Source: Eledone cirrhosa (taxonomy: Eukaryota). Taken from it: DNA of 64,000 nt. The position numbers were made by a program, and so were the translations under genes. Location of the stretch: assembly GCA_964016885.1 (NCBI GenBank), contig OZ024740.1, forward strand, positions 276,272,001-276,336,000, written 5' to 3'. The notes under the pieces were generated by a model, which had not been told where the DNA came from, searched no databases, and saw only the letters and a program-made list of their open reading frames with translations. Of the stretch, positions 7,809-61,967 are shown one piece after another (position 1 is the stretch's first letter; every line of letters begins with the position of its first letter).

Positions 7809-7863
7809 TATATATATATATACGATATTAAACAAATGGAAACTATATTTATAAAACCATATT

Positions 7864-7929
7864 TATTTCATTATACATATTTCAGGGATACCATATTAAA
7901 AATATGGCATGCCTTCGTCAGATAAAATA
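7864..7929 (-). ncRNA. minimal hammerhead ribozyme (family H1)
   Basis: UAUUUUAU CUGACGA AGG-C-AUGCCAUAUU UUU AAUAUGGUAU-C-CCU GAAA UAUGU AUA AUGAAAUA. Full core, 8-bp stem I, long stem II. Confidence 0.85.
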
Positions 7930-8010
7930 CAATATATAACCAGTTTTATAAATAATTTTGACGTACCATAAATATAGCGACCATTAGATATATATATATA
8001 TATATATATA

Positions 8011-8363: not shown

Positions 8364-8839
8364 TGTTAGATTCTTCTATTATATAATGATATATATGATA
8401 CATTGGTATTAGGTCGTAAAGTATGAAATTTGTAGAAATTTGTTTTGTTCTCTATAAGTTTCTACAAATTTCATGCTTGATACCCAATAAAACACTATCT
8501 GATTTAGAAGTGTTACATTGAGTAGAGCCAAATGGTTTTATTTTATATGTTTAAGTAGGATAATTGTTTGTAAGTTTGGCTTTAATGCAAACTCCATTGA
8601 GTGTTAGCAGGGCCTGCATTAAGAATATATGAATATATGTACACACATGAACACACACTCATATGTATATATATATATAATGTATATATATATATTGTTA
8701 TGGTTTGGGAGGGTCATGTTGCCAATAAGAAACACACGCACCAGTTACTTTCACTCCAATTTATTATAAATTAAATTTATAAATTTATAAATTTCGGGTT
8801 GGTTGGTCGGTTCCACAACCGGACGGTTGTTCATATATT

Positions 8840-8882
8840 GTCAAAGTTCTTTCGTCACACATTCTGTGACCTCTTCAGTGAC
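8840..8882 (-). ncRNA. minimal hammerhead ribozyme (family H3)
   Basis: GUCA CUGAAGA G GUCACA GAAUG UGUGAC GAAA GAA CUU UGAC. Confidence 0.75.
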
Positions 8883-9070
8883 TGGGGATTCTTTTCTTTG
8901 TTTTGTGCCTCTCCTTTGTTCTGAGAGGCACAAAACAAAGAAAAGAATCCTCAGAATATTATAACAATATATATATATATATATTTATATATTTGAATAT
9001 ATGTATATGTATATATATATATATAGTGTATTGGTGTGTAATCCTTATTGATGTTTCACCATTTTGGGCA

Positions 9071-10298
9071 CTCAATGCTAACGAGTGGATCCAGATACTG
9101 CATTCTTCACCATATGAGATGTCATCTGGTGTACCACAGGGATCTGTTCTTGGTCCTCTTTTGTTTGTGGCATATATTAATGACATAGATGCCAACTTAC
9201 AGAATGCCACGGTACTAAAATATGCAGATGACATCAAGCTGTACCTTGAAATCAAAAGGACTGATCCTGAAATTTACAACTCTTTCCTACAGTCAGACCT
9301 GGACACAATGCAGCAATGGATCACAGACTGGCAACTGAAGCTGGCTGTGGACAAGTGTACTACCATGCATTTTGGAAGGAAAAATCCAGCTTCCACATAC
9401 TCCCTCCACAACACTGACATCAAAAAGTCCTCTTGTGAACGTGACCTGGGCATTACTGTCAGCAACGATTTGCGTTGGACAAAGCGTGTCTCTAAGATTG
9501 TCAAGAAGGCCGAGGGTGTCTTGGCATCACTCAGCAAGACCTTTGTTAGCCGCTCTCCAGCCATCTATTTAAAACTGTATACAGCTATGGTGCGACCACA
9601 CTTGGAATTCGCATCATCAGTCTGGAATCCCTATCTTGCTCGGAACATTGACCTCCTGGAAACTGTTCAGAGACGTGCAACCAAGCGCATACCCTCCATC
9701 AGACACCTACCATACTCTGAACGCCTTGCTTCCCTGGGCATGGACTTGGTGAATACCCACAAAGTTTTTAACCATCTCGCTAACTGCAATCCTGAGCGCC
9801 TCTTTGATCTCCATGTGTCTAACACACGTGGACATGCCTACAAGATAAGAAAACAGCACAGCTCCCATGACTTTCGCAGACATTTTTTCACGCTCAGAGT
9901 TGCTGAAGCATGGAACAAACTGCCTGCGTCAATTGTTAGCTGCCGAGACACTGCATCCTTTAAGACACTCATGCTTCCCGAAATACGCCAAAACTACACC
10001 TGATGTACCCCTTCCATACACATGCACACATGTGTGTATCATGACTTGTGCACTGTTCATTTTACTGATGTTTGTGCATTGCCCTATGTACTGTACATGC
10101 ACTTTTTTGATGAGTTGTGGTGCACCTGGGCACTGTACACAATATTTCATTATTGTTATTGTTATTATATCATGACTCATACACTGTTCATTTTCCTGAC
10201 ATTTGTACATTATTCTATGTACTATACATGCACCTTTGATGAGTTGTAGTGCACCTGAGCACTGTATACAATAATTTCATTATTATTATTATTATTTA
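9071..10298 (+). mobile_element. 5'-truncated CR1/L2-group LINE (RT C-terminal part + 3'UTR)
   Basis: SGVPQGSVLGPLLF, YADD, LYTAMVRPHLEFASSVWNP, TRGH, FFTLRV..WNKLP motifs. Stop at 10003. 3'UTR has an internal tandem duplication and an (ATT)n tail. The ORF N-terminus in the track is unrelated microsatellite. Confidence 0.92.
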
Positions 10299-10439: not shown

Positions 10440-10657
10440 GTAATAATAATAAATTTGAAGACGAAAATCCAAAGAGGGCTCGATAAGGATAAATATATAT
10501 CAAATATATAAGAACCCTAGAGCAAATAGTTATTAAAATAACAGATTAAATTTAAGCAAAGAATCGGTACTTTCACCCTTAAGATGATCTTCAGAAAATC
10601 CCGTTATGGGTGAAAGCAGCGATTCTTTGCTTAAATTTTAATCTGTTATTTTAATAA
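10440..10657 (-). mobile_element. degenerate fold-back element (arms 10530-10578/10608-10657) plus tail
   Basis: Imperfect inverted arms, CTGAAGA...GAAA remnant on the minus strand, (TA)n flanks. Confidence 0.65.
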
Positions 10658-12635: not shown

Positions 12636-12809
12636 AAATATATAAATATATATATCAGATAAAATACAAAATTTGTTTTATAAATGGTGACATACCAAAA
12701 AAACCAGACCTTATCTGTTCAGGTTCAGTATGAAGGTCTGGTTCCTACTGAATCTGAACCGATCAGGTCTGGTTTCTTGAGTATGTCAGCATTTTAAAAA
12801 TAAATTTTG

Positions 12810-12846
12810 TATTTTATCTGATGAGGGCGTACCAAAATTTTGGTAT
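12810..12846 (+). ncRNA. 3'-truncated hammerhead (family H1)
   Basis: UAUUUUAU CUGAUGA GGG-C-GUACCAA AAUU UUGGUAU, then interrupted by an RTE-tail repeat. GAAA missing. Confidence 0.55.
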
Positions 12847-14663
12847 TGTGACAAAAATTCCCAGTCCTCGCTGTAAAGTGGTCGTGTTGGTATCATGACA
12901 AAAAGTTCCCAGTCCTCACAGTAAAATGGTCGTTTTGGTGTAAATATAAAAGGCATCCAGTCCACACAATAAATATGCTTGGCATTAGGAAAGGCATCCA
13001 GCTGCAGCAACCAAGCCCCAAACAGTTCTGTATGATCAAAACACGGTTATCTGATTTGACTTATCTCACAACAGGACAACCTCTCTAAACCACACTAGTG
13101 TGGAAAATAGATGTTAAGCGGTGATGATGATGATGATGAACAATCATACAAACTGGGAAAATTGTGGTGGTGGTGGTGGTCGTGATGGTGGGGGAGATAG
13201 AGAGAAAGATCACAAGAGAGGGAGAGAAATCGTGCCAGTGTGTATGTCTGTATATATGTATATGTGTGTGTGTATCTATGTATGTGTATGTGTGTGTGTG
13301 TGTGTGTGTGTCTGTCTGTATCTATGTGGATATATGTGTGTGTGTCTTTATGTGGATGTATGTGTATATGTGTATCTGTATGTATGTGTATGTGTGTGTA
13401 TCTGCATGTATGTGTGTGTTTCTGTATCTATGTGGATGTATGTGTGTGTGTATCTGCATGTATGTATGTGTGTAAGTGTCTGTATCTGTGTGGATGTATG
13501 TGTATGTGTGTCAGTAAAAGAAGAATAGAAGTAGTTAAACGAATTACTAAGTCATTTGGTGATCAACAGGTGCCGAAAGTTGAATTATTTTTTCATACAT
13601 GGGAATTCCCCCCTCTTCTTTTATGTTTCAACTAAACACAAACATATAGTTTAGTTTTTCATTGAATTTTAAAACACAACAAAACTAAAAAGAAATATTT
13701 CTAAATGCAACATCCAGATATTTCAAAAGCCCAGCTGAGGTAGTTGAATTATTTCCAATAGACAACTAGGAAAACAGTTTATGTCGGTTTAGTTTATTTT
13801 TTAGCAAAAGATCAGCTGTAGATACATCTCCTCTCCCACAGGGTATATTATCAGCAGAATTGAACTAAAGTGAAGTATAATGTAATGAATGAATCTGACA
13901 GGGAAATTAACATTGGCTTGCATGTTTGTCCCACTAGAAACCTATTTCTAATCTGGGAAATAATAGTAATGATTTCTATTATAGGCAATTTGGGGAGAGG
14001 GGAAAGTCGATTAAATCGACCCCAGTACATTACTGGTACTTTATTTCAACCACCTCCTTAAGGATGAAAGGCAAAGCTAACCTTGGCAGGATTTGAACTC
14101 AGAACGTAAAGGGCCGTAACTCTATGCTGCAAAGCATGGTGTCCGACGCTCTACCACTGCTGCCAATCCAGCACTCTCTGGGAAATAATGATAATAATGA
14201 TGATAGTAATTGTTTCTACTTTTGGCACAAGGCCAGCAATTTTTCAGTACATTACTGGTACTTTATTTTATCATAAGGATGAAAGGCAAAGTTAACCTCG
14301 ACGGGATTTGAACTCAGACTGTAAAGGGATGTAACTATGCTAGAAAGCATGGCATCCAACCCTCTACTGATACTGCCAATTCACCGCCCTTAATGATGAT
14401 AATAATAATGATTGTTTCTATATTTGGCACAAGGCCAGTAATTTGAAGAGAAGGAGTAAGTCGACTCCATTGCATGTTAATGCTTCTGATAAAGCATTAA
14501 CATCCAATTCATTTAAACTTTTCTACTATATCAAGTGGTAAACTGATATATAACTTCATAGTACTCTATCATTTTGCTGTGTTGTTTATCCATTTACTTT
14601 TCGCAAACAAATATGCATATATATTTATACACATGTATATACATATATATGTATATACATGTG

Positions 14664-14714: not shown

Positions 14715-15188
14715 GTCTCTACTTTAGGCACAAGGCCAGCAATTACCCAGTGCATTACTGGTACTTTATTTTATCGACCCCGTAAGGATGAAAGGCAAAG
14801 TCAACCTTGGCGGGATTTGAACTCAGATCGTAAAGGGACGTAACTATGCTGGAAAGCATGGCGTCCGACCCTCTACTGATACTGCCAATCCACCGCCCTA
14901 ATATATATATAATCATCATCATCATCATTGATTAACGTCTATCTTCCATGCTAGTATGGGTTAGACGGGTCCCATTTAGAGGCAAGTTGGGTCTGGTGAC
15001 AATGTCTCGCTCATATAGGAGTGTTTCTGGCTGGCTTTCTACAGCTGGATGCCCTTCCTAACGCCAATATATATATACACACACATCCAATACTGCTAAT
15101 TGAATACATGTCGTTTTCTCAAACTTTTTGTTCCGTTCCTTCCCTTTCTCACTCTATCTTTCTTCTTCATCTTTTATTTCTCATTCTA

Positions 15189-15224
15189 TCTTCTGATGAT
15201 GAACTAGTGTCCGAAATGTTAAGA
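15189..15224 (+). ncRNA. minimal hammerhead ribozyme (family H4)
   Basis: UCUU CUGAUGA U GAAC UAGU GUCC GAAA U GUU AAGA. Confidence 0.7.
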
Positions 15225-15298
15225 CTCTTTTCCTACAATATCAAACATATTTTTTCATTGTACTGTGTCATTTGTTTTACTATATCTGTATAATTTTT

Positions 15299-15342
<44 letters not shown>

Positions 15343-15685: not shown

Positions 15686-15765
<80 letters not shown>

Positions 15766-15807
15766 GTTAAATAAAAGTCAAATGATTAAAATTTAGCTTC
15801 GTTTATT

Positions 15808-15862
15808 ACTGCTATAGATATTTCAGTGACAGCCATCTTTGGCTGTGACCTCTTCAGGCAGT
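15808..15862 (-). ncRNA. minimal hammerhead ribozyme (family H2)
   Basis: ACUGC CUGAAGA GGU-C-ACAGCCA AAGA UGGCUGU-C-ACU GAAA UAUCU AUA GCAGU. Confidence 0.85.
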
Positions 15863-16043
15863 TTGAATTAGTATGGTATAGACAAGTACATATGTTGTTT
15901 AGGTGTATAATATTGTCAATACTCTGATATGCCCAGTTCCTTGTTGGGTTGTTAATTCACTGAGGAACTGGAATCATATCAGAGTATTGACAATATTATA
16001 CACCTAAACAACATATGTACTTATCTATACCATACTAATTCAA

Positions 16044-16098
16044 ACTGCCTGAAGAGGTCACAGCCAAAGATGGCTGTCACTGAAATATATATAGCAGT
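16044..16098 (+). ncRNA. minimal hammerhead ribozyme (family H2)
   Basis: ACUGC CUGAAGA GGU-C-ACAGCCA AAGA UGGCUGU-C-ACU GAAA UAUAU AUA GCAGU. Confidence 0.88.
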
Positions 16099-16285
16099 AA
16101 TAAACGAAGCTAAATTTTAATCATTTGACTTTATTTTACACTACTCCGGAGTAACCAAACCAACCTGCGCACTTCGTCGAGTGCTCCAGTCTGCATACTG
16201 AGGTGTTGGTATACAACCAACATAAACTCAAAATCTCTATATATATATATATATATATATATGTTTGTGTGTGTGTATATATATG

Positions 16286-16338: not shown

Positions 16339-16381
16339 CAATGATAATAATAAATGGAAACTATATTTATAAAACCATATT

Positions 16382-16442
16382 TATTTTATTATATATATTT
16401 CAAGGGTACCAACATTTTGGTACGCTCTCATCAGATAAAATA
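16382..16442 (-). ncRNA. minimal hammerhead ribozyme (family H1)
   Basis: UAUUUUAU CUGAUGA GAG-C-GUACCAA AAUG UUGGUAC-C-CUU GAAA UAUAU AUA AUAAAAUA. Confidence 0.88.
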
Positions 16443-16527
16443 CAAAATTTGTTTTATAAGAAACCAGACCTTATTGGTTCAGGTTCAGTTTGGATATATA
16501 TGATATATATGATATATATTTGATATA

Positions 16528-18583: not shown

Positions 18584-18998
18584 ATATAAACGTTTGAATT
18601 TGTAAAGCCAAACAATGCAGGTATGGACATAGAATAAAAAATGCAAATGCAAAAGATATTGTTGACAATTAGTCTTTTACCTTAGATTTATTTAAATGTC
18701 CTTAATTTTCGAGATAATATCTCTTCTTCGGAGGGAAGTAAAGCGGTTAAACCAGTGTTCTAAATAGCTTCCAAGCTATGTAGAACACTGGTTTAACCGC
18801 TTTACTTCCCTCCGAAGAAGAGATATTATCTCGAAAATTAAGGACATTTAAATAAATCTAAGGTAAAAGACTAATTGTCAACAATATCTTTTGCATTTGC
18901 ATTTTTTATTCTATGTCCATACCTGCATTGTTTGGCTTTACAAATTCAAACGTTTATATCTCATTACACAATGCTTCAAGTAAACTATAACTTCCTCC
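18584..18998 (+). mobile_element. fold-back element: 376-bp near-perfect palindrome (18584-18959) plus ~40-bp tail
   Basis: Centre TTCTA-A-ATAGCTT CC AAGCTAT-G-TAGAA. Flanked by (TA)n. Variant HHR in each arm. Confidence 0.88.
18809..18843 (+). ncRNA. variant hammerhead (CCGAAGA core); mirror copy at 18700-18734 on the minus strand
   Basis: CCU CCGAAGA A GAGAU AUU AUCUC GAAA A UUA AGG. U4>C core change. Confidence 0.55.
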
Positions 18999-21589: not shown

Positions 21590-22005
21590 TTGCAGAAGAT
21601 ATGCGATGGCTTGAGAGAAATGAAGCAATTATTTTCTGTCGGATGTGCAATGCCAATGTGCATGAACGACCAGGCATAGACGAGTTGAGAAAGAAACTGG
21701 ATATAAGAGGGATAAGTTGTGGGTGTGCAGGAGAGAAGGCTGAGATGGTATGGACATATGATGCACATGGAGGATGACCGCTGGGTAAAGAAGTGCCAAG
21801 AAATCCCAGTAGAAGGAAGACGCAGTAGAGGTAGACCACGGAAAACATGGGCGGAGGTGGTGAGAGCAGACCCCAGATCGCTGAAACTCACAGTGGAGAT
21901 GACGAAGGACCGTGACAAGTGGAGAGATGCTGTGGCTGAATAGGATACGGTCCAACCCTTGCAAGCAGGGAAAAGTGGACGTAAAATGATGATGATGATG
22001 ATAAT
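21590..22005 (+). mobile_element. RTE-clade LINE 3' fragment
   Basis: ERRLRWYGHMMHM...GRRSRGRPRKTW...DRDKWR, frameshifted, (ATG)n tail. Confidence 0.88.
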
Positions 22006-22024
22006 GATATATTATATTATGTAT

Positions 22025-22290
22025 ATCATCATCATCATCATCATCATCATTTTACGTCTGCTTTTCCCTGCTTGCAAGGGTGGGACAGGTCCTATTCAGC
22101 ACAGCATCTCTCCACTTGTCACGGTCCTTCGTCATCTCCACGATGAGCGTCAGCGATCTGAGATCTGCTCTCACCACCCCCGCCCATGTTTTTCATGGTC
22201 TTCCTGTACTACGTCTTCCTTCAACTGGCATTTCTTGGCACTTCTTCACCATCGGTCATCCTCCATGTGCATCACATGTCCCATACCATC
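22025..22290 (-). mobile_element. RTE-clade LINE 3' fragment, tail-to-tail with the previous copy
   Basis: Diverged reverse complement of ~21745-22000. Confidence 0.85.
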
Positions 22291-22557
22291 ATATATATAT
22301 ATATATATATATCATCATCATCATCATCCGTCGTTTAACGTCTATCTTCCACGCTAGCATGGTTTACACCATATATATATATGTATATATGTATATATAT
22401 ATATGCATATATGTATATATATATAAATGTGTGTATATATATGATTCCAGTTCCTCAGAGGAATAACAACACAACCAGGAGCTGGAAATATCGATGTATT
22501 GACGGAGTAAAACACACTTCAACAACATGTGTACCTGTCTTTTCCACACCAATTTTG

Positions 22558-22607
22558 ACTGCCTGAAGAGGTCACAGTCAATGATGGCTGTCACCGAAAT
22601 ATATATA
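22558..22607 (+). ncRNA. hammerhead (family H2), 3' strand of stem I deleted
   Basis: ACUGC CUGAAGA GGU-C-ACAGUCA AUGA UGGCUGU-C-ACC GAAA UAUAU AUA. Stem II changes keep pairing. Confidence 0.7.
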
Positions 22608-23566
22608 AACAAAGCCAAATTTTACATCATCATCATCTTCATTTAACGTCCATTTTCCACGCTAGCATGGGTTACATTTGATTTAATTATTTTATATATA
22701 TATATATATATATATACACTAACCAAAATGCTCTTAGTTACTAAAAAAGAAATATCTTAGACTATCTTCTCTATAACATAGTTTTGTTTTGTTCATAATT
22801 GTTTCTACTTTAGGCACAAGGCCAATTACCCAGTGCATTACTGGTACTTTATTTTATCGACCCCGTAAGGATGAAAGGCAAAGTCAACCTTGTTTTGTTC
22901 ATAATGTTTTATTGCTGCAGTAAATGCTGCCGCATGTTTTTCATGTTCTGCATTTTATCACGATATGTTTAATTATTTTAACAATCTTTTAAATTAGAAT
23001 TACTGAAATAAAAGTACAGATACTATAATAGGAAATATGTTTGTTCTGTTAGGAGCAATTTTGTTTGTTTAAATATTTTTCATTTGTAAGTAGTGTGACA
23101 TATTCTATTGATATCTCTTATCAGTGGGTGCAGGTATGTGGGCGTCTATAAGAACAATCAAAATTTCATTTACATTGTTGTGTGTGTAGGTATATGTGTG
23201 TGTGTGTGTGTGTGAGTTTGTATGTATATGTGTATATGTATATATATATATATATGTGTATATGTATATATGTATATATGTATATATAGGTGTATATGTG
23301 TATATACATATATATATATGTATATATATGTATATGTATATATGTATATATATATATGTATATATGTATATGTATATATATGTATATATGTATATATATA
23401 TATATATGTATATATGTATATGTGTATATATATATAGATATATAGATATATGTATATGTATATATATGTATATGTGTGTATATATATAGATATATGTATA
23501 TGTATATATATATATATGTATATGTGTGTATATATATAGATATATGTATATGTATATATATATATA

Positions 23567-24443: not shown

Positions 24444-24588
24444 ATATATATATATATATATATATAAAATCTCTCCAAGATGGCTGACTGAATACACACG
24501 TGTGTTTTTTTTCTCCCCAATTTTTTTCTCATTTTCCCGCGTTCCTTCCTCTCATCACTCTTTACTTTGCCTTCTATTTCTAACTCTA

Positions 24589-24624
24589 TCTTCTGATGAA
24601 GGACTAGTGTCTGAAACATTAAGA
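24589..24624 (+). ncRNA. minimal hammerhead ribozyme (family H4)
   Basis: UCUU CUGAUGA A GGAC UAGU GUCU GAAA C AUU AAGA. Confidence 0.72.
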
Positions 24625-24700
24625 ATCTCTTCCTGCTATTTCAAGTGTTAAACTAATATATTTCTTCCACATACTGTGCTGTTTGTTTTGTTATTACTTT

Positions 24701-24752
<52 letters not shown>

Positions 24753-32011: not shown

Positions 32012-33835
32012 TATATGAACCCTACTGCTTACCTAGTACTTTATTTTGTTGACCTGAGCCTTTTTTAAACTCATGGTCCAAGGAACTTTATCTAATGCTC
32101 TGACAATCCTTCCAATCTACCACCACCATTATAATAATTTCCTACATCAGCACTAGTCCTGACATTTATATTGACCCAAATACTTGACTGGCACTTTATT
32201 TAATAATTCTCTAGGGAAAACAGATAAATTCTTATCTGAATTTCAAATCAGAATGTAAAGAGTTAAAACAAATAAACCAAAGAATTTTGCCCAATGCTTT
32301 AATGATTCTGTAAATCCATTGCGCTCAGTAATGATATCTTTCTCTAAGAATTGCACAAGGCCAGCAATATTGGTGGAAAGAACAAAGTCAAGTATATTGA
32401 CTCTAATTCTTTACTGTTACAATTTTATCAACCCCAGATGGATGAAAGAAAGGCAAGGTTGTTAACTTACAAACACAGACACCAACACACACATATGTAT
32501 ATATGTGTGTGTTGGTGTCTGTTTATGCTTACTGTTTTTTTTTTATGTTCTGTAACTTAGCAGTTCTACAAATGGTATTGTATAATGCTGTAACTCTTGA
32601 TGAAATCATAGGGGTTCTGTAATGGCATACTGTATTTTTGGGGGCATTTTAAGCCTGGCAGAGTGCGGCTCTTTCCAGGTCTGAATACATCAGATTTCTT
32701 CCAGAGAAGGATAGAAAGTAAGAGAATAGAAGTGAGAAAGAGATATAGAGGAAGAATCGACTACAGTACTAGACTGGTACTTTTTTTTTTTTACCGACCA
32801 TGGTGGGATTGGAACTCAGAGAGTGGAAAGCCAGGATGAATCATTAAGATATTCTATCCAATATCTTAATGATTCTACTAATTCTACAAATAGGGATCAA
32901 TAAAATAAATAGACATGAAACAAAATAAGTACTGGGGTTGATATGATTGATTAAACCTCTTCAAGGCTGTAACGTCATTGCTTCAATAAAATGAAATAAG
33001 AGAAGAAAAGAATATATATATGTGTGGCTGAGTGGTTAGAGAATTGGATTCGCAATCGTAAGGTTGTGAGTTCGATTCCTGGACCAGGCGATGCGTTATG
33101 TCCTTGAGCAAGACACTTTATTTCACGTTGCTCCTTCTACCTGGAGTTGCGACCGATAGATAGTATTAGCAATTGGAAAGACCAACGGAAACATTGTTCC
33201 CTCGGTCCGATTTGACGAAAATCGATCGTTCCCTAGATATGTGTACATATATATATATATATGTATATTCTTTATATTTGACTTTATGCACAAAGTATGC
33301 CAAAATAGTTTTTATTTGCTCTATCAAGGTTATTTGCCCCATACTAGGGACAGAGAAATGGAGTGTGAAAGCATATGTTTTTTTTTGTTTGAAAATGTAA
33401 ATATGTATATGTTGTTCTATTCTAGGTTAACTTGTGATAAATTTAGTTCAATTTATAGACACATATATATGCACACATATATATATATATATAAGCATAC
33501 ACCATATAACATCATTTCATGGGGGCATTTTCATGGTAAACATATATATATATATATAGTTAGTGAAAGAGTGAAGAATATCATGGTCGGTTGTACAAAA
33601 ATTGTTTATATATATATATATATATATAAACAATCATCTGGTTGTGGAACCAACCAACCGGAAATTTATAAATTCCTAAGTTTATAAATTTATTATAATA
33701 AATTGAAGTGAAAGCAACTGGTGCGTGTGTTTCTTATTGGCAACATGACCCTGCCAAAGTATAACAATATCGGTTTCAACACACGTTTTCAGATAAAGAA
33801 TCTTGCTAAACAAATTCAGAAACGAAATATATATA

Positions 33836-38549: not shown

Positions 38550-38800
38550 TAAAATATTAAACAAATAATGAATAAAACAATGAAACAGTTCCTTATATTA
38601 AACAAAAAAAGTTCATTATTTAACGATCGTTTTATTCATTATTTGTTTAATATTTTATCTTGACTCTGTATACCGTTTATCTTTCACCGAAAGTGATTTT
38701 TCATTACATCTCTTCTTTCCATGATATCCGGAATACATTGAGTTCTTCATACGGATTGGACACTACCGTAAACTCTTGGTAGATTTATCTACATATATAC

Positions 38801-41097: not shown

Positions 41098-42725
41098 TTT
41101 CTGTTTGTTGTGATGGTGATGGTGGTGATGGTGATGGTGATAACAATCATTTTGATCATTGTGATGACAATGACAATTGCTATATACATTGTTTCAAACT
41201 CATAATGGTAGTGATGATGGTGATGGTAGTGATGATGGTGATGGTAGTGGTGATGGTGATGATGATGATGATGATGATGATGATGGTGATGGTGATGAGG
41301 CTGGCCATTATGATGAATTGCTATGTATATTATCTTCAAAATGATAATGATTATGGTAATGTTTATGATGATGGCAATGGCAGTAATCACGACAATGGTG
41401 ATGGTGGTGGTGATGGTGATGGTGATGGTGGGGATAATGGTGATGGTGATGGTGAAAGTGATGGTGGGGATAATGGTGATGGTGATGGTGATGGTGGTGA
41501 TAATGGTGATGGTGGGGATAATGGTGATGGTGATGGTGGGGATAATGGTGATGGTGATGGTGAAAGTGATGGTGGGGATAATGGTGATGCTGATGGTCAA
41601 AGTGATGGTGATGATGATGGTGGGGGTGATGGTGATGGTGATGGTGGGGATAATGGTGATGGTGGGGGTGATGGTGATGGTGAAAGTGATGGTGGGGATA
41701 ATGGTGATGGTGATGGTGGTGATAATGGTGATGGTGATAATGGTGGTGATAATGGTGATGGTGATGGTGATGATGATAATGGTGATGGTAGTAGTGGTGC
41801 TTGTGATGATGGTGGTGGTGGTGGTGATAAAGGTGGTGTTGGTGGTGCTGATAGTGATGGTTATGGTGGTGCTGGTGATAAAGGTGGTGATGGTGATGGG
41901 AGTGATGGTGCTTGTGGTGATGGTGATGGTGGTGGTGATAGTGATGATTATGGCGGTGTTGGTGATAAAGGTGGTGATGGTGATGGGAGTGATGGTGCTT
42001 GTGATGATGGTGATGATGGTGATGGTGGTGGTGATAGTGATGATTATGGCGGTGTTGGTGATGAAGGTGGTGATGGTGGTGGTGGTGCTTGTAATGATGG
42101 TGGTGGTGATGGTGGTGGTGCTGGTGGTGGTGGTGATGGTGATGGTGATGGTAGTGGTGGTGGTGCTTGTGATGATGGTGATGGTGATAGTGATGGTTAT
42201 GGTGGTGCTGATGATGGTGGTGGTGATGGTGATGGTAGTGGTGGTGCTTGTGATGATGGTGATAGTGATGGTTATGGTGGTGCTGGTGATGATGGTGGTG
42301 GTGATGGTAGTGGTGGTGCTTGTGATGATGGTGATGGTGATGGTAGTGGTGGTGCTTGTGATGATGGTGATGGTGGTGGTGATAGTGATGGTTATGGTGG
42401 TGCTGGTGGTGCTTGTAATGATGGTGGTGGTTATGGTGATGGTAGTGGTGGTGCTTGTGATGGTTATGGCGGTGCTGGTGGTGGTGCTTGTAATGATGGT
42501 GGTGGTGATGGTGATGGAAATGGTGGTGCTTGTGATGATGGTGGTGGTGATAGTGATGGTTATGGTGGTGCTGGTGATGGTGGTGATGGTGATAGTGATG
42601 GAAATGGTGGTGCTGGTGGTAGTGATGGTTATGGTGGTACTGATGAGTAAGGTGGTGATGGTGGTGGTGTTGATGGTGATAATGGTGGTGTTGATGGTGA
42701 TACAGGTGGTGTTGATGGTGATGAG
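40670..42725. repeat. degenerate (GAT)/(GGT) triplet microsatellite field
   Basis: Direct inspection. Confidence 0.9.
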
Positions 42726-42756
42726 ATTGCTATATCTGTTGTCTTAAAAATTATAA

Positions 42757-42950
42757 TAATTGTTTCTAACATTGGCACAAGGCCAGCAATTTACCAGTGT
42801 ATTACTGGTACTTTATTTTATCGAACCCGTAAAGATGAAAGGCAAAATTAACCTCGGCGGGATTTGAACTCCGATCATAACTGGGGCCGTGACTCTTTGC
42901 TGTAAAGCATGGCGTCCGACCCTCTACCGATACTGCCAATCCACTGCCCT
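42757..42950 (-). mobile_element. SINE family A
   Basis: Full reverse-complement copy. It supplies the 'start' of the 3217-aa ORF. Confidence 0.9.
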
Positions 42951-43008
42951 TAAAAATTATAATAATGTTCATGATAATGGTGGCAGTATTGTTGATGATG
43001 GTGATAGT

Positions 43009-46000
43009 GTTGGTGGTGGTGATGGTAAAGGTGTTGTTAGTGCTGGTGGTGGTGTTGGTGGTGGTGATGGTAAAGGTGTTGTTAGTGCTGGTGGTGGTGT
43101 TGGTGATGGTAAAGGTGTTGTTAGTGCTGGTGGTGGTGTTGGTGGTGGTGATGGTAAAGGTGTTGTTAGTGCTGGTTGTGGTGGTGGTGGTGGTGGTAGT
43201 GATGGTAAAGGTGTTGTTAGTGCTGGTGTTGGTGGTGGTGGTGGTGGTAGTGATGGTAAAGGTTTTGTTAGTGCTGGTGGTGGTGTTGGTGGTAGTGATG
43301 GTAAAGGTGTTGTTAGTGCTGGTGGTGGTGTTGGTGGTGGTGATGGTAAAGGTGTTGTTAGTGCTGGTGGTGGTGTTGGTGGTAGTGAAGGTAAAGGTGT
43401 TGTTAGTGCTGGTGGTGGTGTTGGTGGTAGTGATGGTAAAGGTGTTGTTAGTGCTGGTGGTGGTGTTGGTGGTAGTGATGGTAAAGGTGTTGTTAGTGCT
43501 GGTGGTGGTGGTGTTGGTGGTAGTGATGGTAAAGGTGTTGTTAGTGCTGGTTGTGGTGGTGGTGGTGGTGGTAGTGATGGTAAAGGTGTTGTTAGTGCTG
43601 GTGTTGGTGGTGGTGGTGGTGGTAGTGATGGTAAAGGTTTTGTTAGTGCTGGTGGTGGTGTTGGTGGTAGTGATGGTAAAGGTGTTGTTAGTGCTGGTGG
43701 TGGTGGTGTTGGTGGTAGTGATGGTAAAGGTGTTGTTAGTGCTGGTGGTGGTGGTAGTGATGGTAAAGGTGTTGTTAGTGCTGCTGGTGGTGGTAGTGAT
43801 GGTAAAGGTGTTGTTAGTGGTGGTGTTGGTGGTAGTGATGGTAAAGGTGTTGTTAGTGATGGTGGTGGTGATGGTAAAGGTGTTGTTAGTGCTGGTGGTG
43901 GTGGTGTTGGTGGTAGTGATGGTAAAGGTGTTGTTAGTGCTGGTGGTGGTGTTGGTGGTAGTGATGGTAAAGGTGTTGTTAGTGCTGGTGGTGGTGTTGG
44001 TGGTAGTGATGGTAAAGGTGTTGTTAGTGCTGGTGGTGGTGGTGTTGGTGGTAGTGATGGTAAAGGTGTTGTTAGTGCTGGTGGTGGTGTTGGTGGTAGT
44101 GATGGTAAAGGTGTTGTTAGTGCTGGTGGTGGTGTTGGTGGTAGTGATGGTAAAGGTGTTGTTAGTGCTGGTGGTGGTGTTGGTGGTGGTAGTGATGGTA
44201 AAGGTTTTGTTAGTGCTGGTGGTGGTGTTGGTGGTAGTGATGGTAAAGGTGTTGTTAGTGCTGGTGGTGGTGATGGTGGTAGTGATGGTAAAGGTTTTGT
44301 TAGTGCTGGTGGTGGTGTTGGTGGTAGTGATGGTAAAGGTGTTGTTAGTGCTGGTGGTGGTGTTGGTGGTAGTGATGGTAAAGGTTTTGTTAGTGCTGGT
44401 GGTGGTGTTGGTGGTAGTGATGGTAAAGGTGTTGTTAGTGCTGGTGGTGGTGTTGGTGGTAGTGATGGTAAAGGTGTTGTTAGTGCTGGTGGTGGTGTTG
44501 GTGGTAGTGATGGTAAAGGTGTTGTTAGTGCTGGTGGTGGTGTTGGTGGTAGTGATGGTAAAGGTGTTGTTAGTGGTGGTGTTGGTGGTAGTGATGGTAA
44601 AGGTGTTGTTAGTGCTGGTGGTGGTGTTGGTGGTGGTAGTGATGGTAAAGGTTTTGTTAGTGCTGGTGGTGGTGTTGGTGGTAGTGATGGTAAAGGTGTT
44701 GTTAGTGCTGGTGGTGGTGGTGGTGGTGGTAGTGATGGTAAAGGTTTTGTTAGTGCTGGTGGTGGTGGTGGTGGTGGTGGTAGTGATGGTAAAGGTTTTG
44801 TTAGTGCTGGTGGTGGTGTTGGTGGTAGTGATGGTAAAGGTGTTGTTAGTGCTGGTGTTGGTGGTAGTGATGGTAAAGGTGTTGTTAGTGCTGGTGGTGG
44901 TGTTGGTGGTAGTGATGGTAAAGGTGTTGTTAGTGCTGGTGGTGGTGTTGGTGGTAGTGATGGTAAAGGTTTTGTTAGTGCTGGTGGTGGTGTTGGTGGT
45001 AGTGATGGTAAAGGTGTTGTTAGTGCTGGTGGTGGTGTTGGTGGTAGTGATGGTAAAGGTTTTGTTAGTGCTGGTGGTGGTGTTGGTGGTAGTGATGGTA
45101 AAGGTGTTGTTAGTGCTGGTGGTGGTGTTGGTGGTAGTGATGGTAAAGGTGTTGTTAGTGCTTGTGGTGTTGGTGGTAGTGATGGTAAAGGTGTTGTTAG
45201 TGCTGGTGGTGTTGGTGGTAGTGATGGTAAAGGTGTTGTTAGTGCTGGTGTTGGTGGTAGTGATGGTAAAGGTGTTGTTAGTGCTGGTGGTGGTGTTGGT
45301 GGTAGTGATGGTAAAGGTGTTGTTAGTGCTGGTGGTGGTGTTGGTGGTAGTGATGGTAAAGGTGTTGTTACTGCTGGTGGTGGTGTTGGTGGTAGTGATG
45401 GTAAAGGTGTTGTTAGTGCTGGTGGTGGTGTTGGTGGTAGTGATGGTAAAGGTGTTGTTAGTGCTGGTGGTGGTGGTGGTGGTAGTGATGGTAAAGGTTT
45501 TGTTAGTGCTGGTGGTGGTGTTGGTGGTAGTGATGGTAAAGGTGTTGTTAGTGCTGGTGTTGGTGGTGGTGATGGTAAAGGTGTTGTTAGTGCTGGTGGT
45601 GGTGGTGTTGGTGGTAGTGATGGTAAAGGTGTTGTTAGTGCTGGTGGTGGTGGTGTTGGTGGTAGTGATGGTAAAGGTGTTGTTAGTGCTGGTGGTGGTG
45701 GTGGTGGTAGTGATGGTAAAGGTTTTGTTAGTGCTGGTGGTGGTGGTGTTGGTGGTAGTGATGGTAAAGGTGTTGTTAGTGCTGGTGGTGGTGTTGGTGG
45801 TAGTGATGGTAAAGGTGTTGTTAGTGCTGGTGGTGGTGGTGTTGGTGGTAGTGATGGTAAAGGTGTTGTTAGTGCTGGTGGTGGTGGTGGTGGTGGTGGT
45901 AGTGATGGTAAAGGTGTTGTTAGTGCTGGTGGTGGTGGTGGTGGTGGTAGTGATGGTAAAGGTTTTGTTAGTGCTGGTGGTGGTGGTGTTGGTGGTAGTG

Positions 46001-49000
46001 ATGGTAAAGGTGTTGTTAGTGCTGCTGGTGGTGTTGGTGGTAGTGATGGTAAAGGTGTTGTTAGTGCTGGTGTTGGTGGTGGTGATGGTAAAGGTGTTGT
46101 TAGTGCTGGTGGTGGTGGTGTTGGTGGTAGTGATGGTAAAGGTGTTGTTAGTGCTGGTGGTGGTGGTGGTGGTGGTAGTGATGGTAAAGGTTTTGTTAGT
46201 GCTGGTGGTAGTGGTGGTGGTAGTGATGGTAAAGGTTTTGTTAGTGCTGGTGGTGGTGGTGTTGGTGGTAGTGATGGTAAAGGTGTTGTTAGTGCTGGTG
46301 GTGGTGTTGGTGGTAGTGATGGTAAAGGTGTTGTTAGTGCTGGTGGTGGTGGTGTTGGTGGTAGTGATGGTAAATGTTTTGTTAGTGCTGGTGGTGGTGG
46401 TGTTGGTGGTAGTGATGGTAAAGGTGTTGTTAGTGCTGGTGTTGGTGGTGGTGATGGTAAAGGTTTTGTTAGTGCTGGTGGTGGTGGTGTTGGTGGTAGT
46501 GATGGTAAAGGTGTTGTTAGTGCTGGTGTTGGTGGTGGTGATGGTAAAGGTGTTGTTAGTGCTGGTGGTGGTGGTGTTGGTGGTAGTGATGGTAAAGGTG
46601 TTGTTAGTGCTGGTGGTGGTGGTGTTGGTGGTAGTGATGGTAAAGGTGTTGTTAGTGCTGGTGGTGGTGGTGGTGGTGGTGGTGGTAGTGATGGTAAAGG
46701 TTTTGTTAGTGCTGGTGGTGGTGTTGGTGGTAGTGATGGTAAAGGTGTTGTTAGTGCTGCTGGTGGTGGTGGTGGTAGTGATGGTAAAGGTTTTGTTAGT
46801 GCTGGTGGTGGTGGTGTTGGTGGTAGTGATGGTAAAGGTGTTGTTATTGCTGGTGGTGGTGTTGGTGGTAGTGATGGTAAAGGTGTTGTTAGTGCTGGTG
46901 GTGGTGGTGTTGGTGGTAGTGATGGTAAAGGTGTTGTTAGTGCTGGTGGTGGTGGTGGTGGTGGTGGTAGTGATGGTAAAGGTTTTGTTAGTGCTGGTGG
47001 TGGTGGTGTTGGTGGTAGTGATGGTAAAGGTGTTGTTAGTGCTGGTGGTGGTGTTGGTGGTAGTGATGGTAAAGGTGTTGTTAGTGCTGGTGGTGGTGGT
47101 GTTGGTGGTAGTGATGGTAAAGGTGTTGTTAGTGCTGGTGGTGGTGTTGGTGGTAGTGATGGTAAAGGTGTTGTTAGTGCTGGTGGTGGTGTTGGTGGTA
47201 GTGATGGTAAAGGTGTTGTTAGTGCTGGTGGTGGTGGTGGTGGTGGTGGTAGTGATGGTAAAGGTTTTGTTAGTGCTGGTGGTGGTGTTGGTGGTAGTGA
47301 TGGTAAAGGTGTTGTTAGTGCTGGTGGTGGTGGTAGTGATGGTAAAGGTGTTGTTAGTGCTGGTGGTGGTGTTGGTGGTAGTGATGGTAAAGGTGTTGTT
47401 AGTGCTGGTGGTGGTGGTGTTGGTGGTAGTGATGGTAAAGGTGTTGTTAGTGCTGGTGTTGGTGGTAGTGATGGTAAAGGTGTTGTTAGTGCTGGTGGTG
47501 GTGGTGTTGGTGGTAGTGATGGTAAAGGTGTTGTTAGTGCTGGTGGTGGTGTTGGTGGTAGTGATGGTAAAGGTGGTGTTAGTGCCGGTGTTGGTGGTAG
47601 TGATGGTAAAGGTGTTGTTAGTGCTGGTGGTGGTGTTGGTAGTGATGGTAAAGGTGTTGTTAGTGCTGGTGGTGGTGTTGGTGGTAGTGATGGTAAAGGT
47701 GTTGTTAGTGCTGGTGGTGGTGTTGGTGGTAGTGATGGTAAAGGTGTTGTTAGTGCTGGTGGTGGTGTTGGTGGTAGTGATGGTAAAGGTGTTGTTAGTG
47801 CTGGTGGTGGTGTTGGTGGTAGTGATGGTAAAGGTGTTGTTAGTGCTGGTGGTGGTGGTGTTGTTAGTGCTGCTGGTGGTGTTGATGGTAGTGATGGTAA
47901 AGGTGTTGTTAGTGCTGGTGGTGGTGTTGGTGGTAGTGATGGTAAAGGTGTTGTTAGTGCTGGTGGTGGTGTTGGTGGTAATGATGGTAAAGGTGTTGTT
48001 AGTGCTGGTGGTGGTGATGGTAAAGGTGTTGTTAGTGCTGGTGGTGGTGTTGGTGGTAGTGATGGTAAAGGTGTTGTTAGTGCTGGTGGTGGTAGTGATG
48101 GTAAAGGTTTTGTTAGTGCTGGTGGTGGTGTTGGTGGTAGTGATGGTAAAGGTGTTGTTAGTGCTGTTGGTGGTGTTGGTGGTAGTGATGGTAAAGGTGT
48201 TGTTAGTGCTGGTGGTGGTGTTGGTGGTAGTGATGGTAAAGGTGTTGTTAGTGCTGGTGGTGGTGGTGTTGGTGGTAGTGATGGTAAAGGTGTTGTTAGT
48301 GCTGGTGGTGGTGGTGGTGGTGGTGGTAGTGATGGTAAAGGTTTTGTTAGTGCTGGTGGTGGTGGTGTTGGTGGTAGTGATGGTAAAGGTGTTGTTAGTG
48401 CTGGTGGTGGTGTTGGTGGTAGTGATGGTAAAGGTGTTGTTAGTGCTGGTGGTGGTGGTGTTGGTGGTGGTGATGGTAAAGGTGTTGTTAGTGCTGGTGG
48501 TGTTGGTGGTAGTGATGGTAAAGGTGTTGTTAGTGCTGGTGGTGGTGGTGTTGGTGGTGGTGATGGTAAAGGTGTTGTTAGTGCTGGTGGTGTTGGTGGT
48601 AGTGATGGTAAAGGTGTTGTTAGTGCTGGTGGTGGTGGTGGTGGTAGTGATGGTAAAGGTGTTGTTAGTGCTGGTGGTGGTGGCGGTGGTGGTAGTGATG
48701 GTAAAGGTTTTGTTAGTGCTGGTGGTGGTGGTGGTGGTGGTGGTAGTGATGGTAAAGGTGTTGTTAGTGGTGGTGTTGGTGGTAGTGATGGTAAAGGTGT
48801 TGTTAGTGCTGGTGGTGGTGTTGGTGGTAGTGATGGTAAAGGTGTTGTTAGTGCTGGTGGTGGTGTTGGTGGTAGTGATGGTAAAGGTGTTGTTAGTGCT
48901 GGTGGTGGTGGTGGTGGTGGTAGTGATGGTAAAGGTGTTGTTAGTGCTGGTGGTGGTGGTGGTGGTAGTGATGGTAAAGGTTTTGTTAGTGCTGGTGGTG

Positions 49001-52000
49001 GTGTTGGTGGTAGTGATGGTAAAGGTGTTGTTAGTGCTGGTGGTGGTGTTGGTGGTAGTGATGGTAAAGGTGTTGTTAGTGCTGGTGGTGGTGGTGTTGG
49101 TGGTAGTGATGGTAAAGGTGTTGTTAGTGCTGGTGGTGGTGGTGGTGGTGGTGGTAGTGATGGTAAAGGTTTTGTTAGTGCTGGTGGTGGTGTTGGTGGT
49201 AGTGATGGTAAAGGTGTTGTTAGTGCTGGTGGTGGTGGTGGTGGTAGTGATGGTAAAGGTGTTGTTAGTGCTGGTGGTGGTGGTGGTGGTGGTGGTAGTG
49301 ATGGTAAAGGTTTTGTTAGTGCTGGTGGTGGTGGTGGTGGTGGTGGTAGTGATGGTAAAGGTGTTGTTAGTGCTGGTGGTGGTGTTGGTGGTAGTGATGG
49401 TAAAGGTGTTGTTAGTGCTGGTGGTGGTGGTGGTGGTGGTGGTAGTGATGGTAAAGGTGTTGTTAGTGCTGGTGGTGGTGGTGGTGGTAGTGATGGTAAA
49501 GGTGTTGTTAGTGCTGGTGGTGGTGGTGGTGGTGGTGGTAGTGATGGTAAAGGTTTTGTTAGTGCTGGTGGTGGTGTTGGTGGTAGTGATGGTAAAGGTG
49601 TTGTTAGTGCTGGTGGTGGTGGTGGTGGTGGTGGTAGTGATGGTAAAGGTTTTGTTAGTGCTGGTGGTGGTGGTGTTGGTGGTAGTGATGGTAAAGGTGT
49701 TGTTAGTGCTGGTGGTGGTGTTGGTGGTAGTGATGGTAAAGGTGTTGTTAGTGCTGGTGGTGGTGTTGGTGGTAGTGATGGCAAAGGTGTTGTTAGTGCT
49801 GGTGGTGGTGTTGGTGGTAGTGATGGTAAAGGTGTTGTTAGTGCTGGTGGTGGTGGTGTTGGTGGTAGTGATGGTAAAGGTGTTGTTAGTGCTGGTGGTG
49901 GTGGTGTTGGTGGTAGTGATGGTAAAGGTGTTGTTAGTGTTGGTGGTGGTGGTGGTGGTGGTGGTAGTGATGGTAAAGGTTTTGTTAGTGCTGCTGGTGG
50001 TGGTGTTGGTGGTAGTGATGGTAAAGGTGTTGTTAGTGCTGGTGGTGGTGTTGGTGGTAGTGATGGTAAAGGTGTTGTTAGTGCTGGTGGTGGTGTTGGT
50101 GGTAGTGATGGTAAAGGTGTTGTTAGTGCTGGTGGTGGTGGTGTTGGTGGTAGTGATGGTAAAGGTGTTGTTAGTGCTGGTGGTGGTGTTGGTGGTAGTG
50201 ATGGTAAAGGTGTTGTTAGTGCTGGTGGTGGTGTTGGTGGTAGTGATGGTAAAGGTGTTGTTAGTGCTGGTGGTGGTGTTGGTGGTAGTGATGGTAAAGG
50301 TGTTGTTAGTGGTGGTGTTGGTGGTAGTGATGGTAAATGTGTTGTTAGTGGTGGTGTTGGTGGTAGTGATGGTAAAGGTGTTGTTAGTGCTGGTGGTGGT
50401 GGTGTTGGTGGTAGTGATGGTAAAGGTGTTGTTAGTGCTGCTGGTGGTGTTGATGGTAGTGATGGTAAAGGTGTTGTTAGTGCTGGTGGTGGTGGTGGTG
50501 GTAGTGATGGTAAAGGTGTTGTTAGTGCTGGTGGTGGTGTTGGTGGTAGTGATGGTAAAGGTGTTGTTAGTGCTGGTGGTGGTGTTGGTGGTAGTGATGG
50601 TAAAGGTGTTGTTAGTGCTGGTGGTGGTGTTGGTGGTAGTGATGGTAAAGGTGTTGTTAGTGCTGGTGGTGGTGTTGGTGGTAGTGATGGTAAAGGTGTT
50701 GTTAGTGCTGGTGGTGGTGTTGGTGGTAGTGATGGTAAAGGTGTTGTTAGTGCTGGTGGTGGTGTTGGTGGTAGTGATGGTAAAGGTTTTGTTAGTGCTG
50801 GTGGTGGTGTTGGTGGTAGTGATGGTAAAGGTGTTGTTAGTGCTGGTGGTGGTGTTGGTGGTAGTGATGGTAAAGGTGTTGTTAGTGCTGGTGGTGGTGT
50901 TGGTGGTAGTGATGGTAAAGGTGTTGTTAGTGCTGGTGGTGGTGTTGGTGGTAGTGATGGTAAAGGTGTTGTTAGTGCTGGTGGTGGTGGTAATGATGGT
51001 AAAGGTGTTGTTAGTGCTGGTGGTGGTGTTGGTGGTAGTGATGGTAAATGTGTTGTTAGTGCTGGTGGTGGTGGTGTTGGTAGTGATGGTAAAGGTGTTG
51101 TTAGTGCTGGTGGTGGTGTTGGTGGTAATGATGGTAAAGGTGTTGTTAGTGCTGGTGGTGGTGGTGGTGGTAGTGATGGTAAAGGTGTTGTTAGTGCTGG
51201 TGGTGGTGTTGGTGGTAGTGATGGTAAAGGTGTTGTTAGTGCTGGTGGTGGTGTTGGTGGTAGTGATGGTAAAGGTGTTGTTAGTGCTGGTGGTGTTGGT
51301 GGTAGTGATGGTAAAGGTGTTGTTAGTGCTGGTGGTGGTGTTGATGGTAGTGATGGTAAAGGTGTTGTTAGTGCTGGTGGTGGTGTTGGTGGTGGTAGTG
51401 ATGGTAAAGGTTTTGTTAGTGCTGGTGGTGGTGTTGGTGGTAGTGATGGTAAAGGTGTTGTTAGTGCTGGTGGTGGTGATGGTGGTAGTGATGGTAAAGG
51501 TGTTGTTAGTGCTGGTGGTGGTGGTGGTGGTGGTAGTGATGGTAAAGGTGTTGTTAGTGCTGGTGGTGGTGTTGGTGGTAATGATGGTAAAGGTGTTGTT
51601 AGTGCTGGTGGTGGTGTTGGTGGTAGTGATGGTAAAGGTGTTGTTAGTGCTGGTGGTGGTGGTGGTGGTGGTAGTGATGGTAAAGGTGTTGTTAGTGCTG
51701 GTGTTGGTGGTGGTGATGGTAAAGGTGTTGTTAGTGGTGGTGGTGGTGGTGTTGGTGGTGGTAGTGATGGTAAAGGTGTTGTTAGTGCTGGTGTTGGTGG
51801 TGGTGATGGTAAATGTGTTGTTAGTGCTGGTGGTGGTGGTGTTGGTAGTGATGGTAAAGGTGTTGTTAGTGCTGGTGGTGGTGTTGGTGGTAGTGATGGT
51901 AAAGGTGTTGTTAGTGCTGGTGGTGGTGTTGATGGTAGTGATGGTAAAGGTGTTGTTAGTGCTGGTGGTGGTGTTGGTGGTAGTGATGGTAAAGGTGTTG

Positions 52001-52540
52001 TTAGTGCTGGTGGTGGTGTTGGTGGTAGTGATGGTAAAGGTGTTGTTAGTGCTGGTGGTGGTGGTGGTGGTGGTAGTGATGGTAAAGGTGTTGTTAGTGC
52101 TGGTGTTGGTGGTGGTGATGGTAAAGGTGTTGTTAGTGCTGGTGGTGGTGGTGGTGGTGGTGGTAGTGATGGTAAAGGTGTTGTTAGTGCTGGTGTTGGT
52201 GGTGGTGATGGTAAAGGTGTTGTTAGTGCTGGTGGTGGTGTTGGTGGTGTTGGTGGTGGTGATGGTAAAGGTGTTGTTAGTGCTGGTGGTGGTGTTGGTG
52301 GTAGTGATGGTAAAGGTGTTGTTAGTGCTGGTGGTGGTGTTGGTGGTAGTGATGGTAAAGGTGTTGTTAGTGCTGGTGGTGGTGTTGGTGGTAGTGATGG
52401 TAAAGGTGTTGTTAGTGCTGGTGGTGGTGATGGTAAAGGTGTTGTTAGTGCTGGTGGTGGTGATGGTAAAGGTGTTGTTAGTGCTGGTGGCGGTGGTGGT
52501 GGTGATGGTATTGGTGTTAGTGATGGTTTAAGGTGTTGTT
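43009..52540. repeat. ~9.5-kb minisatellite, modal 45-bp unit GGTAAAGGTGTTGTTAGTGCT(GGT)nGTTGGTGGTAGTGAT
   Basis: Roughly 200 units. Length variation is in whole GGT triplets. Confidence 0.97.
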
Positions 52541-61751: not shown

Positions 61752-61822
<71 letters not shown>

Positions 61823-61967
61823 CTTAAAAGTATATGGTACACAAAACGTTAGCATCAACAGTTTTCCAAGAGATGGCAACATGAATGGACCTGTTATTTT
61901 TCTCTAAAAATATTTTTTTCCAAATCCGTCCTGCCCGTCCTTTCAATCTTTCTAATTTCTCATTCTA

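Follow-up and report, generated by a model that had tools for sequence, protein, structure and literature searches.

The turn of a palindrome at 15768-16138 recurs as the 5′-end of a separate, diverged copy of the same repeat at 22439, and the evidence supports the view that this hairpin is inherited, that it is older than the outer arms of the palindrome, and that an arm has been re-made at an old hairpin. The family (H2) is, by anatomy, a PLE-type pseudo-LTR, a solo repeat with a head-to-head inverted copy. The feature is real and of a known kind; the idea that a 5′ palindrome can self-prime has been in print since 2013 (PMC3846280). The best explanation, which we hold with about even confidence, is that H2 represents the terminal repeat of an octopus PLE with an inherited imperfect 5′ hairpin at which the cDNA would fold back. 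The comparison covers two H2 insertions, both of which lie within the window (the whole 64-kb stretch of Eledone cirrhosa DNA that was analysed).

The H2 insertions

The palindrome comprises an inner turn flanked by two arms, with additional sequence on one side:

15768-15926, minus strand: left arm with a hammerhead core at 15857, tail-less and 13 nt from (TA)n (BLASTN, pattern scans, TA-run distances)
15927-15979, no strand assigned: turn, consisting of an imperfect stem and a 21-nt loop; its minus strand corresponds to the start of the 22439 copy, and the ATAT at 15976-15979 overlaps the right arm (alignment, folds)
15976-16138, plus strand: right arm with an intact type I hammerhead core at 16049, helix I ACTGC/GCAGT and a palindromic helix III (pattern scan, fold)
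16139-16237, plus strand: "tail", a 99-nt one-sided extension reaching (TA)n (gap to the TA run; assigned to the element by position only)

The element sits between two TA runs with the extra 99 nt on the right side only, and no second copy of this extension was found in the window. The original prediction described near-perfect outer arms with defects beside the loop, both here and in the palindrome at 18584; in the present case the outer arms contain two mismatches in 148 pairs, after which the register breaks at the inner stem. Both ends of the H2 insertions lie in (TA)n, where target-site duplications are hidden. An ATG at 16070, in the helix II loop of the right arm, opens 16 codons, and its frame is kept in the 22439 copy across a 9-nt gap. 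A protein search with the H2 peptide (X at stops) gave no hits among five candidates, which is weak evidence for so short a query. At the outer end of the left arm, before the TA run, a short near-tandem repeat (15755-15780) could reflect slippage or re-initiation at the junction.

The second insertion has a single arm and has been interrupted:

22439-22624, plus strand: single-arm H2 copy, a PLE-type pseudo-LTR fragment in a (TA)n tract, with the BLASTN match running to about 22630 (similarity to the minus strand of 15979-15782; TA run at the 5′-end)
22439-22491, plus strand: 5′ hairpin of this copy, with ATAT/ATAT, a 2-nt bulge, an 11-bp stem pairing 22445-22455 with 22477-22487 (one U.G) and a 21-nt A/C-rich loop (RNA and DNA folds)
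22558-22607, plus strand: type I hammerhead, core at 22563 (core pattern scan, alignment)
22625-22675, plus strand: later SINE-like insert, a repeat headed by (CAT)n and present in many copies across the window (BLASTN)
22676-22693, plus strand: probable 3′ remnant of the copy, ending without a tail at (TA)n (TA run from 22693) (resembles the outer left-arm end by eye; AT-rich)

Judged by eye in AT-rich sequence, the copy probably continues past the SINE-like insert to about 22693. BLASTN of 22430-22640 against the window matched the minus strand of 15979-15782 (78.1% identity over 201 columns, E 2e-42) and the other palindrome arm at 15963-16124 (76%); beyond these two stretches no homologue was found in the window, the one extra match being 19 nt of simple repeat. 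A 16-mer from the 5′ stem arm occurs twice in the window and in none of 100 shuffles. The flanks of the 22439 and 15774 insertions, which are unique sequence, show no similarity over approximately 500-600 nt on each side. Their dissimilarity rules out that 22439 is a local duplicate of 15774, and its description as an independent, diverged copy stands.

As predicted, the 22439 copy starts with the reverse complement of the spacer and inner stem of the palindrome: the gap-free alignment of 22439-22491 with the reverse complement of 15927-15979 has 45 of 53 positions identical and eight different. Its 5′-end falls within about 4 nt of the palindrome's inversion point. A TA run at 22434-22441 overlaps the start of the copy, the first ATAT of which is indistinguishable from the (TA)n target. 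Given the spread of 5′-ends in the other hammerhead families H1 and H3, agreement to within 4 nt is only modestly unlikely to arise by chance, by a rough estimate in the order of 10-20%. The hairpin is predicted to fold as sense RNA at -15.5 kcal/mol (z = -4.4; 0 of 200 shuffles equally good). Alignment to the palindrome arms shows a 9-nt gap in the hammerhead of this copy, which removes the cleavage site together with the 3′ strand of helix I; a stricter scan that demands helix I does not list this hammerhead.

Classification

Pattern scans and folding predict type I hammerhead ribozymes in H2 at 16049 (+), 15857 (-) and 22563 (+); the scan patterns were built from the hammerhead consensus. 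Helix I and the palindromic helix III are present in both palindrome hammerheads, and the ribozymes point outward from the turn, so that the arms are head-to-head. In Rfam, 22435-22625 gave five weak hits and no hammerhead, and among the matches listed for 6300-39300 (150 of 356) all were to microRNA and similar families, on simple repeats or hairpins, and below the gathering score. H2 possesses the head-to-head inverted, 5′-shorter copy with a junction palindrome by which PLE ends are recognized. Compared with the PLE tail criterion of 30-40 bp, the one-sided extensions, whose origin is assigned by position, measure 39 nt at 18584 and 99 nt at 15774.

Among 122 stop-to-stop frames of at least 60 amino acids outside simple repeats, Pfam revealed no PLE reverse transcriptase or GIY-YIG ORF; a single frame reached the cut-off, an RVT_1 fragment at 8882-10000 with LINE-type named hits. 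The 5′-truncated LINE reverse transcriptase (RVT_1) at 9086-10003 has its best named matches in Octopus sinensis and O. vulgaris, together with truncated "Octop..." entries, at 69-81% identity versus about 40% for most other matches, which places the host among the octopuses.

Several assignments were rejected. An autonomous PLE (EN+) would carry a PLE-type reverse transcriptase plus GIY-YIG ORF, which was not found here, coding not being expected of solo repeats. A place in the Naiad clade conflicts with the canonical hammerhead core of H2, which departs from the definition of Naiads given in PMC8557442, by which they lack a canonical hammerhead and have an N-terminal endonuclease. Non-LTR retrozymes are described as head-to-tail tandem units with a type I hammerhead in each (bioRxiv 10.64898/2026.07.22.740005), whereas H2 copies are solo or head-to-head. 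The one-sided 99-nt extension and the single-arm relative contradict the two-armed copies of a MITE or foldback DNA transposon. A scan of bacterial and archaeal genomes for H2 returned one match of 21 nt, about the chance level. H2 may already be catalogued in Repbase or Dfam.

Old hairpin and young arms

Within the turn, the differences between the 22439 copy and the palindrome amount to none of 17 positions in the 5′ stem arm, five of 21 in the loop and three of 15 in the 3′ stem arm. The two H2 copies disagree in 20 of 66 linker columns (30%), compared with 4 of 45 in the hammerhead (Fisher p 0.006) and 3 of 32 (9%) in the stem (Fisher p 0.017, or 0.035 minus the ambiguous ATAT); these regions were picked after the alignment had been seen. 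The sparing of hammerhead and stem suggests that the H2 lineages diverged while active, and not by decay alone. The palindrome arms have nearly all of their differences from the 22439 copy in common, from which we surmise that, after the split, one arm was copied from the other or both from the same RNA; the inner stem retains mismatches and a shared 2-nt asymmetry. The claim that the hairpin at the 5′-end of H2 is inherited, and did not arise by chance at one insertion, is thereby upheld: the same turn is found in separate insertions and is older than the outer arms.

The three stem differences preserve pairing on the 22439-sense strand. Out of 1500 trials with random triples, 6.5-10% did likewise, compared with 14-21% for the other DNA strand, which makes this weak evidence for preservation. 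The pairing is suggestive only and does not separate selection of the stem as sense RNA from selection as cDNA.

Other palindromes and hammerhead families

A masked self-comparison of the window gave 14 local inverted matches, eight of which were examined as candidate palindromes and six set aside as SINE-like or dispersed pairs. Five of the eight (311, 8882, 15774, 18584 and 38552) end at most 13 nt from a TA run on one side and carry a further 39-187 nt on the other, a pattern that incomplete copying of the first arm into the second would produce. For the remaining palindromes, the TA-run distances are 0 and at least 29 nt at 10534, even at 21397, and interrupted at 12654. Inverted SINE-like pairs joined at (CAT)n/(TA)n microsatellites, at 21744-22290 and 57400-57503, fall outside the count of eight. 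Two further hammerhead-bearing families provide material for comparison:

18584-18998, no strand assigned: second palindrome, of a different family, with the variant hammerhead core CCGAAGA at 18812 (+) and 18731 (-) and a 39-nt tail on the right (scan, arm pairing)
12654-12822, no strand assigned: H1 palindrome, with an 11-bp stem and a loop of about 20 nt at 12700-12746, the inversion point being inside the loop (alignment, folds)
16340-16494, minus strand: H1 single-arm copy, hammerhead at 16434; starts in the hairpin loop, without the turn (scan, alignment)
7825-7990, minus strand: H1 single-arm copy, hammerhead at 7921; 5′-end further inside (scan, alignment)

The arms at 18584 carry one mismatch (18763/18780) and a central C/C in 183 pairs, the mismatch lying 6-8 bp from a 2-4-nt loop, so the predicted defects beside the loop amount in this case to one mismatch. 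The arms are otherwise identical, which points to a recent insertion. The hammerhead-like motif predicted on both arms, at 18812 (+) and 18731 (-), has U4 replaced by C. At 18223 (+), a weak match to the hammerhead pattern, in which the core is degenerate, may be due to chance.

The H1 hairpin, situated upstream of the hammerhead, folds with a z of -4.6. The three H1 insertions start at different points, with 5′-ends spread over about 35 nt. H3 is a minimal-hammerhead family in (TA)n (24468-24708, 61821-62090, 15078-15301 and, weakly, 14483-14586), which is single-armed, without a palindrome and with differing 5′-ends. A fixed hairpin breakpoint is found in one family, H2, in two copies, and is not seen in the other testable family, H1. 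A built-in hairpin turn is therefore not general in this window: H1 turns in its own loop and starts differently in each insertion, and the turns at 311 and 8882 have neither a mismatch nor an imperfect stem near the loop.

The turn at 10534 (palindrome at 10530-10657) combines a 21-nt loop with an inner stem of 9 bp and mismatches beside it, a geometry like that of H2 in unrelated sequence; pattern scans revealed no hammerhead in this palindrome. Three unrelated families (H2, H1 and 10534) have hairpins of similar dimensions. At 8695-8963 lies a palindrome-capped element with a minus-strand hammerhead core at 8878, of which 15 nt of core and helix II are common to H2; a 3′ fragment at 33622-33767 is a second copy of this 8882 family, ending short of the hammerhead and not including the turn. 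Short palindromes at 311-419 and 38550-38657 lie against TA runs, with one-sided extensions of 72 and 143 nt and AATGAAACAGTTC near the turn in both. Neither contains a canonical hammerhead, and these are possibly Naiad-type ends. A region at approximately 41300-52500 is an 11-kb tandem array of 9-15-bp units with a GC skew of about 0.9 and stop-free frames of more than 3000 codons.

Priming strand and proposed mechanism

In the mechanism that we favour, an H2 RNA starting with the imperfect hairpin would be mobilised in trans into (TA)n. By analogy with other PLEs, an endonuclease would nick the (TA)n tract and the reverse transcriptase would start from the tail end, copying the RNA to its 5′-end, hairpin included. 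The 3′-end of the cDNA would then fold back on the hairpin and be extended along the cDNA into a near-perfect second arm, which would stop short of the tail and join the other side of the (TA)n; the product of this last step is the structure seen in the sequence. The hairpin would travel on the RNA and never be re-copied, such that old mismatches would stay while the outer arms are reset, which is the pattern observed. The 22439 copy, tail-less and with its spacer the other way round, might go back to a related palindrome whose inverted arm was transcribed, or be a palindrome minus its tailed arm.

The snap-back self-priming of cDNA that had been proposed is borne out in part. An end at the hairpin can pair in register (probability 0.22-0.78), but the primer strand that the proposal implied is unsupported, the 99-nt tail being on the other arm. 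For the minus-strand end (3′-end at 15927; the cDNA if the tailed arm came first) the predicted probability of productive-register pairing is 0.56, 0.72 and 0.78 at 37, 25 and 18 °C, respectively, and for the plus-strand end 0.22, 0.47 and 0.63. The left arm, which is continuous with the 22439-type spacer, is tail-less, and the tail is on the right arm, spanning the 99 nt to (TA)n. Because a fold-back copy cannot contain sequence absent from its template, the left arm is unlikely to have been the first strand. The alternatives are that the right arm was made first, which puts the spacer in the opposite orientation to that of 22439, or that two cDNAs have been joined. Most likely, the tailed right arm was the first strand in the 15774 insertion, with the spacer flipped, the flip/flop arrangement that the original prediction had suggested looking for; these tail-based readings assume that the 99 nt are element-derived, for which position is the sole basis.

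The joining of two cDNAs in trans seems rather unlikely to us. A PLE protein would prime on each of the nicked target strands, starting at one site that includes the tail and at another that does not; the 3′-end of one cDNA would anneal to the inner stem arm of the other via the hairpin base pairs and the flap would be trimmed, the hairpin acting as joining homology. The tail on the arm without the 22439-type spacer would then need no flip, whereas fold-back needs either a flip of the spacer between the two H2 insertions or the loss of an arm, which counts against it. Joining would also fit the near-coincidence of the tail-less points at which the left arm and the 22439 copy stop. For the anole PLE protein, cutting and extension of both strands and two tail-bounding start sites are reported, and it has been modelled as a dimer (PMC11167929); a tail is possible at either end of an insertion (PMC8557442). 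The hairpin-bearing arm is flush with the TA run in H1 also, although the H1 left arm may be a later cut-back. The H1 turn in the loop and not at the stem base, the scatter of H1 5′-ends over about 35 nt and the differing H3 5′-ends likewise speak against fold-back. On the other hand, an intramolecular turn is in keeping with the short loops (4-9 nt) at 311, 8882 and 18584; trans joining would demand two cDNAs that stopped within a few bases of each other, and for the identical arms at 18584 and 311 it would demand templates of a single source.

Passive inheritance, which we regard as quite unlikely, would have the palindrome form once in an ancestor and be copied whole through read-through; the 22439 hairpin would be what 5′ truncation or deletion had left of an inverted arm, and gene conversion would have homogenised the arms. 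No special priming step is required, an arm could be lost through microhomology between the junction ATAT and (TA)n, and one-sided shortening of an arm is consistent with 5′ truncation. Yet the arms share lineage changes while the stem keeps its mismatches, so that conversion would need to spare the stem exactly; the stem is, moreover, more conserved than the linker, and no remnant of a tail was found to the left of 22439.

Self-priming of an antisense RNA, as proposed for the rotifer Penelope, is improbable here. A transcript of the opposite strand would end in the hairpin, and its own 3′-end would prime reverse transcription. This reading has been published for the same head-to-head junction palindromes, where it was linked to intron retention, and Arkhipova 2013 (PMC3846280) taking the same geometry as antisense-template priming is a point against cDNA fold-back. 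The plus-strand RNA of 15927-15979 folds well (-20.8 kcal/mol, z -4.5), but the 22439 copy gives a weak antisense hairpin (z -1.7), and the anole PLE primes in vitro from nicked DNA on sense RNA (PMC11167929). A non-retroelement origin is very improbable: long near-perfect inverted arms in TA tracts and the absence of an ORF would suit a MITE that is palindromic and targets TA sites, or a fold-back introduced in assembly, but outward hammerheads on both arms, the one-sided tail and the single-arm relative speak against these, and a read fold-back would mirror the flanks, which are not mirrored in H2.

A broader reading, possible if doubtful, is that solo PLE palindromes are self-renewing. Outward transcription of each arm would yield RNAs with flip and flop spacers, and the hairpin would be a selected cis-element that rebuilds the second arm at each insertion, by cDNA fold-back or by annealing to a partner cDNA. 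The comparison is with the flip and flop hairpin ends of parvoviruses, here transferred to a retroelement. If this reading is true, the H2, H1 and 10534 families would have in common a hairpin whose stem measures 9-11 bp and whose loop has about 21 nt, and the orientation of the spacer relative to the tail would be a genome-wide readout of cis fold-back versus the joining of two cDNAs.

Comparison with known systems

The formation of inverted ends in PLEs is still termed undefined (PMC8557442). Titles and the openings of abstracts revealed no published work that tests whether breakpoints cluster or how the spacer is oriented in PLEs, most subscription literature lying outside the search. PLEs make up 6.83% of the O. 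vulgaris genome (supplement of PMC13282606). The 2013 proposal came from a rotifer with few copies, and the octopus genome offers many more. With eight candidate palindromes in one 64-kb window, counts of breakpoints and of spacer orientation versus tail would be a cheap test of an open step in the PLE cycle. The pair of H2 loci adds one datum, an old stem with young arms and a tail on the unexpected arm, which does not settle the mechanism.

The Penelope elements of the rotifer Adineta vaga (Pen2a_Av, Pen2_Av and Pen3a_Av) are among the closest known systems. The pLTR is approximately 200 bp long, and an inverted pLTR is described that falls 37 bp short of the direct one, with a 15-bp overlap between the two. 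A. vaga pLTRs possess 5′ palindromes of 18 and 38 bp, the 18-bp one in a partial-tandem copy for which the account describes no inverted arm; a likely derivative has inverted pLTRs (PMC3846280). That account favours self-priming, with an antisense template, as the origin of such palindromes at the junction, whereas our proposal for H2 places priming on the cDNA. Common to both are a head-to-head shorter inverted copy, a one-sided tail and a 5′ palindrome; the ORF starts inside the pLTR in A. vaga, and the H2 repeat has an ATG in its helix II loop. H2 differs from the elements described in PMC3846280 in its solo repeats, imperfect hairpin, 21-nt loop and longer tail (99 versus 31 nt), in the availability of two copies 22% apart for comparison and in target duplications that are hidden by (TA)n.

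The H2 ribozymes resemble the minimal hammerheads of metazoan PLEs (PMC4209133) in being type I, with a long helix II, a helix I of 4-5 bp and a small palindromic helix III; in Schistosoma, pairs of hammerheads occur on opposite strands 100-700 bp apart (PMC4209133). They differ from those ribozymes by an internal C.C mismatch in helix II and by lacking the extra base that is usual between positions 9 and 10.1, which is present at 8878 and 18812.

Inverted 5′-truncated copies, one-sided tails and (TA)n targets are standard in PLEs (PMC8557442), and H2 shares all three with the Naiads, which include Naiad_Obim and Naiad_Ovul of Octopus. According to the same source Naiads are without a canonical hammerhead, and H2 has one. 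Eight of ten motifs from the window (H2 hammerhead and tail among them) do not occur in the text of the Craig 2021 supplement (PMC8557442), in which line-broken motifs would escape; matches to a 9-mer and a 10-mer stand in unrelated contexts in two of four and two of two places, respectively.

Poseidon PAc of Anolis (PMC11167929) has its ORF start in helix II of the hammerhead, where H2 has an ATG, and likewise combines an AT-rich target with a tail, in its case set by the start sites of the reverse transcriptase. PAc is autonomous and has been tested in vitro; the main text on PAc gives no mechanism for the inverted arm.

The snap-back of a full-length cDNA end has been documented in R2-mediated insertions (PMC11371274), and hairpin-primed inverted duplications in those of L1 (bioRxiv 10.1101/2024.12.14.628481). 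In both cases a free DNA 3′-end self-primes before the junction closes, as proposed for H2. The R2 and L1 events reported in these two sources are side products that depend on chance microhomology, whereas H2 would use an inherited terminal hairpin.
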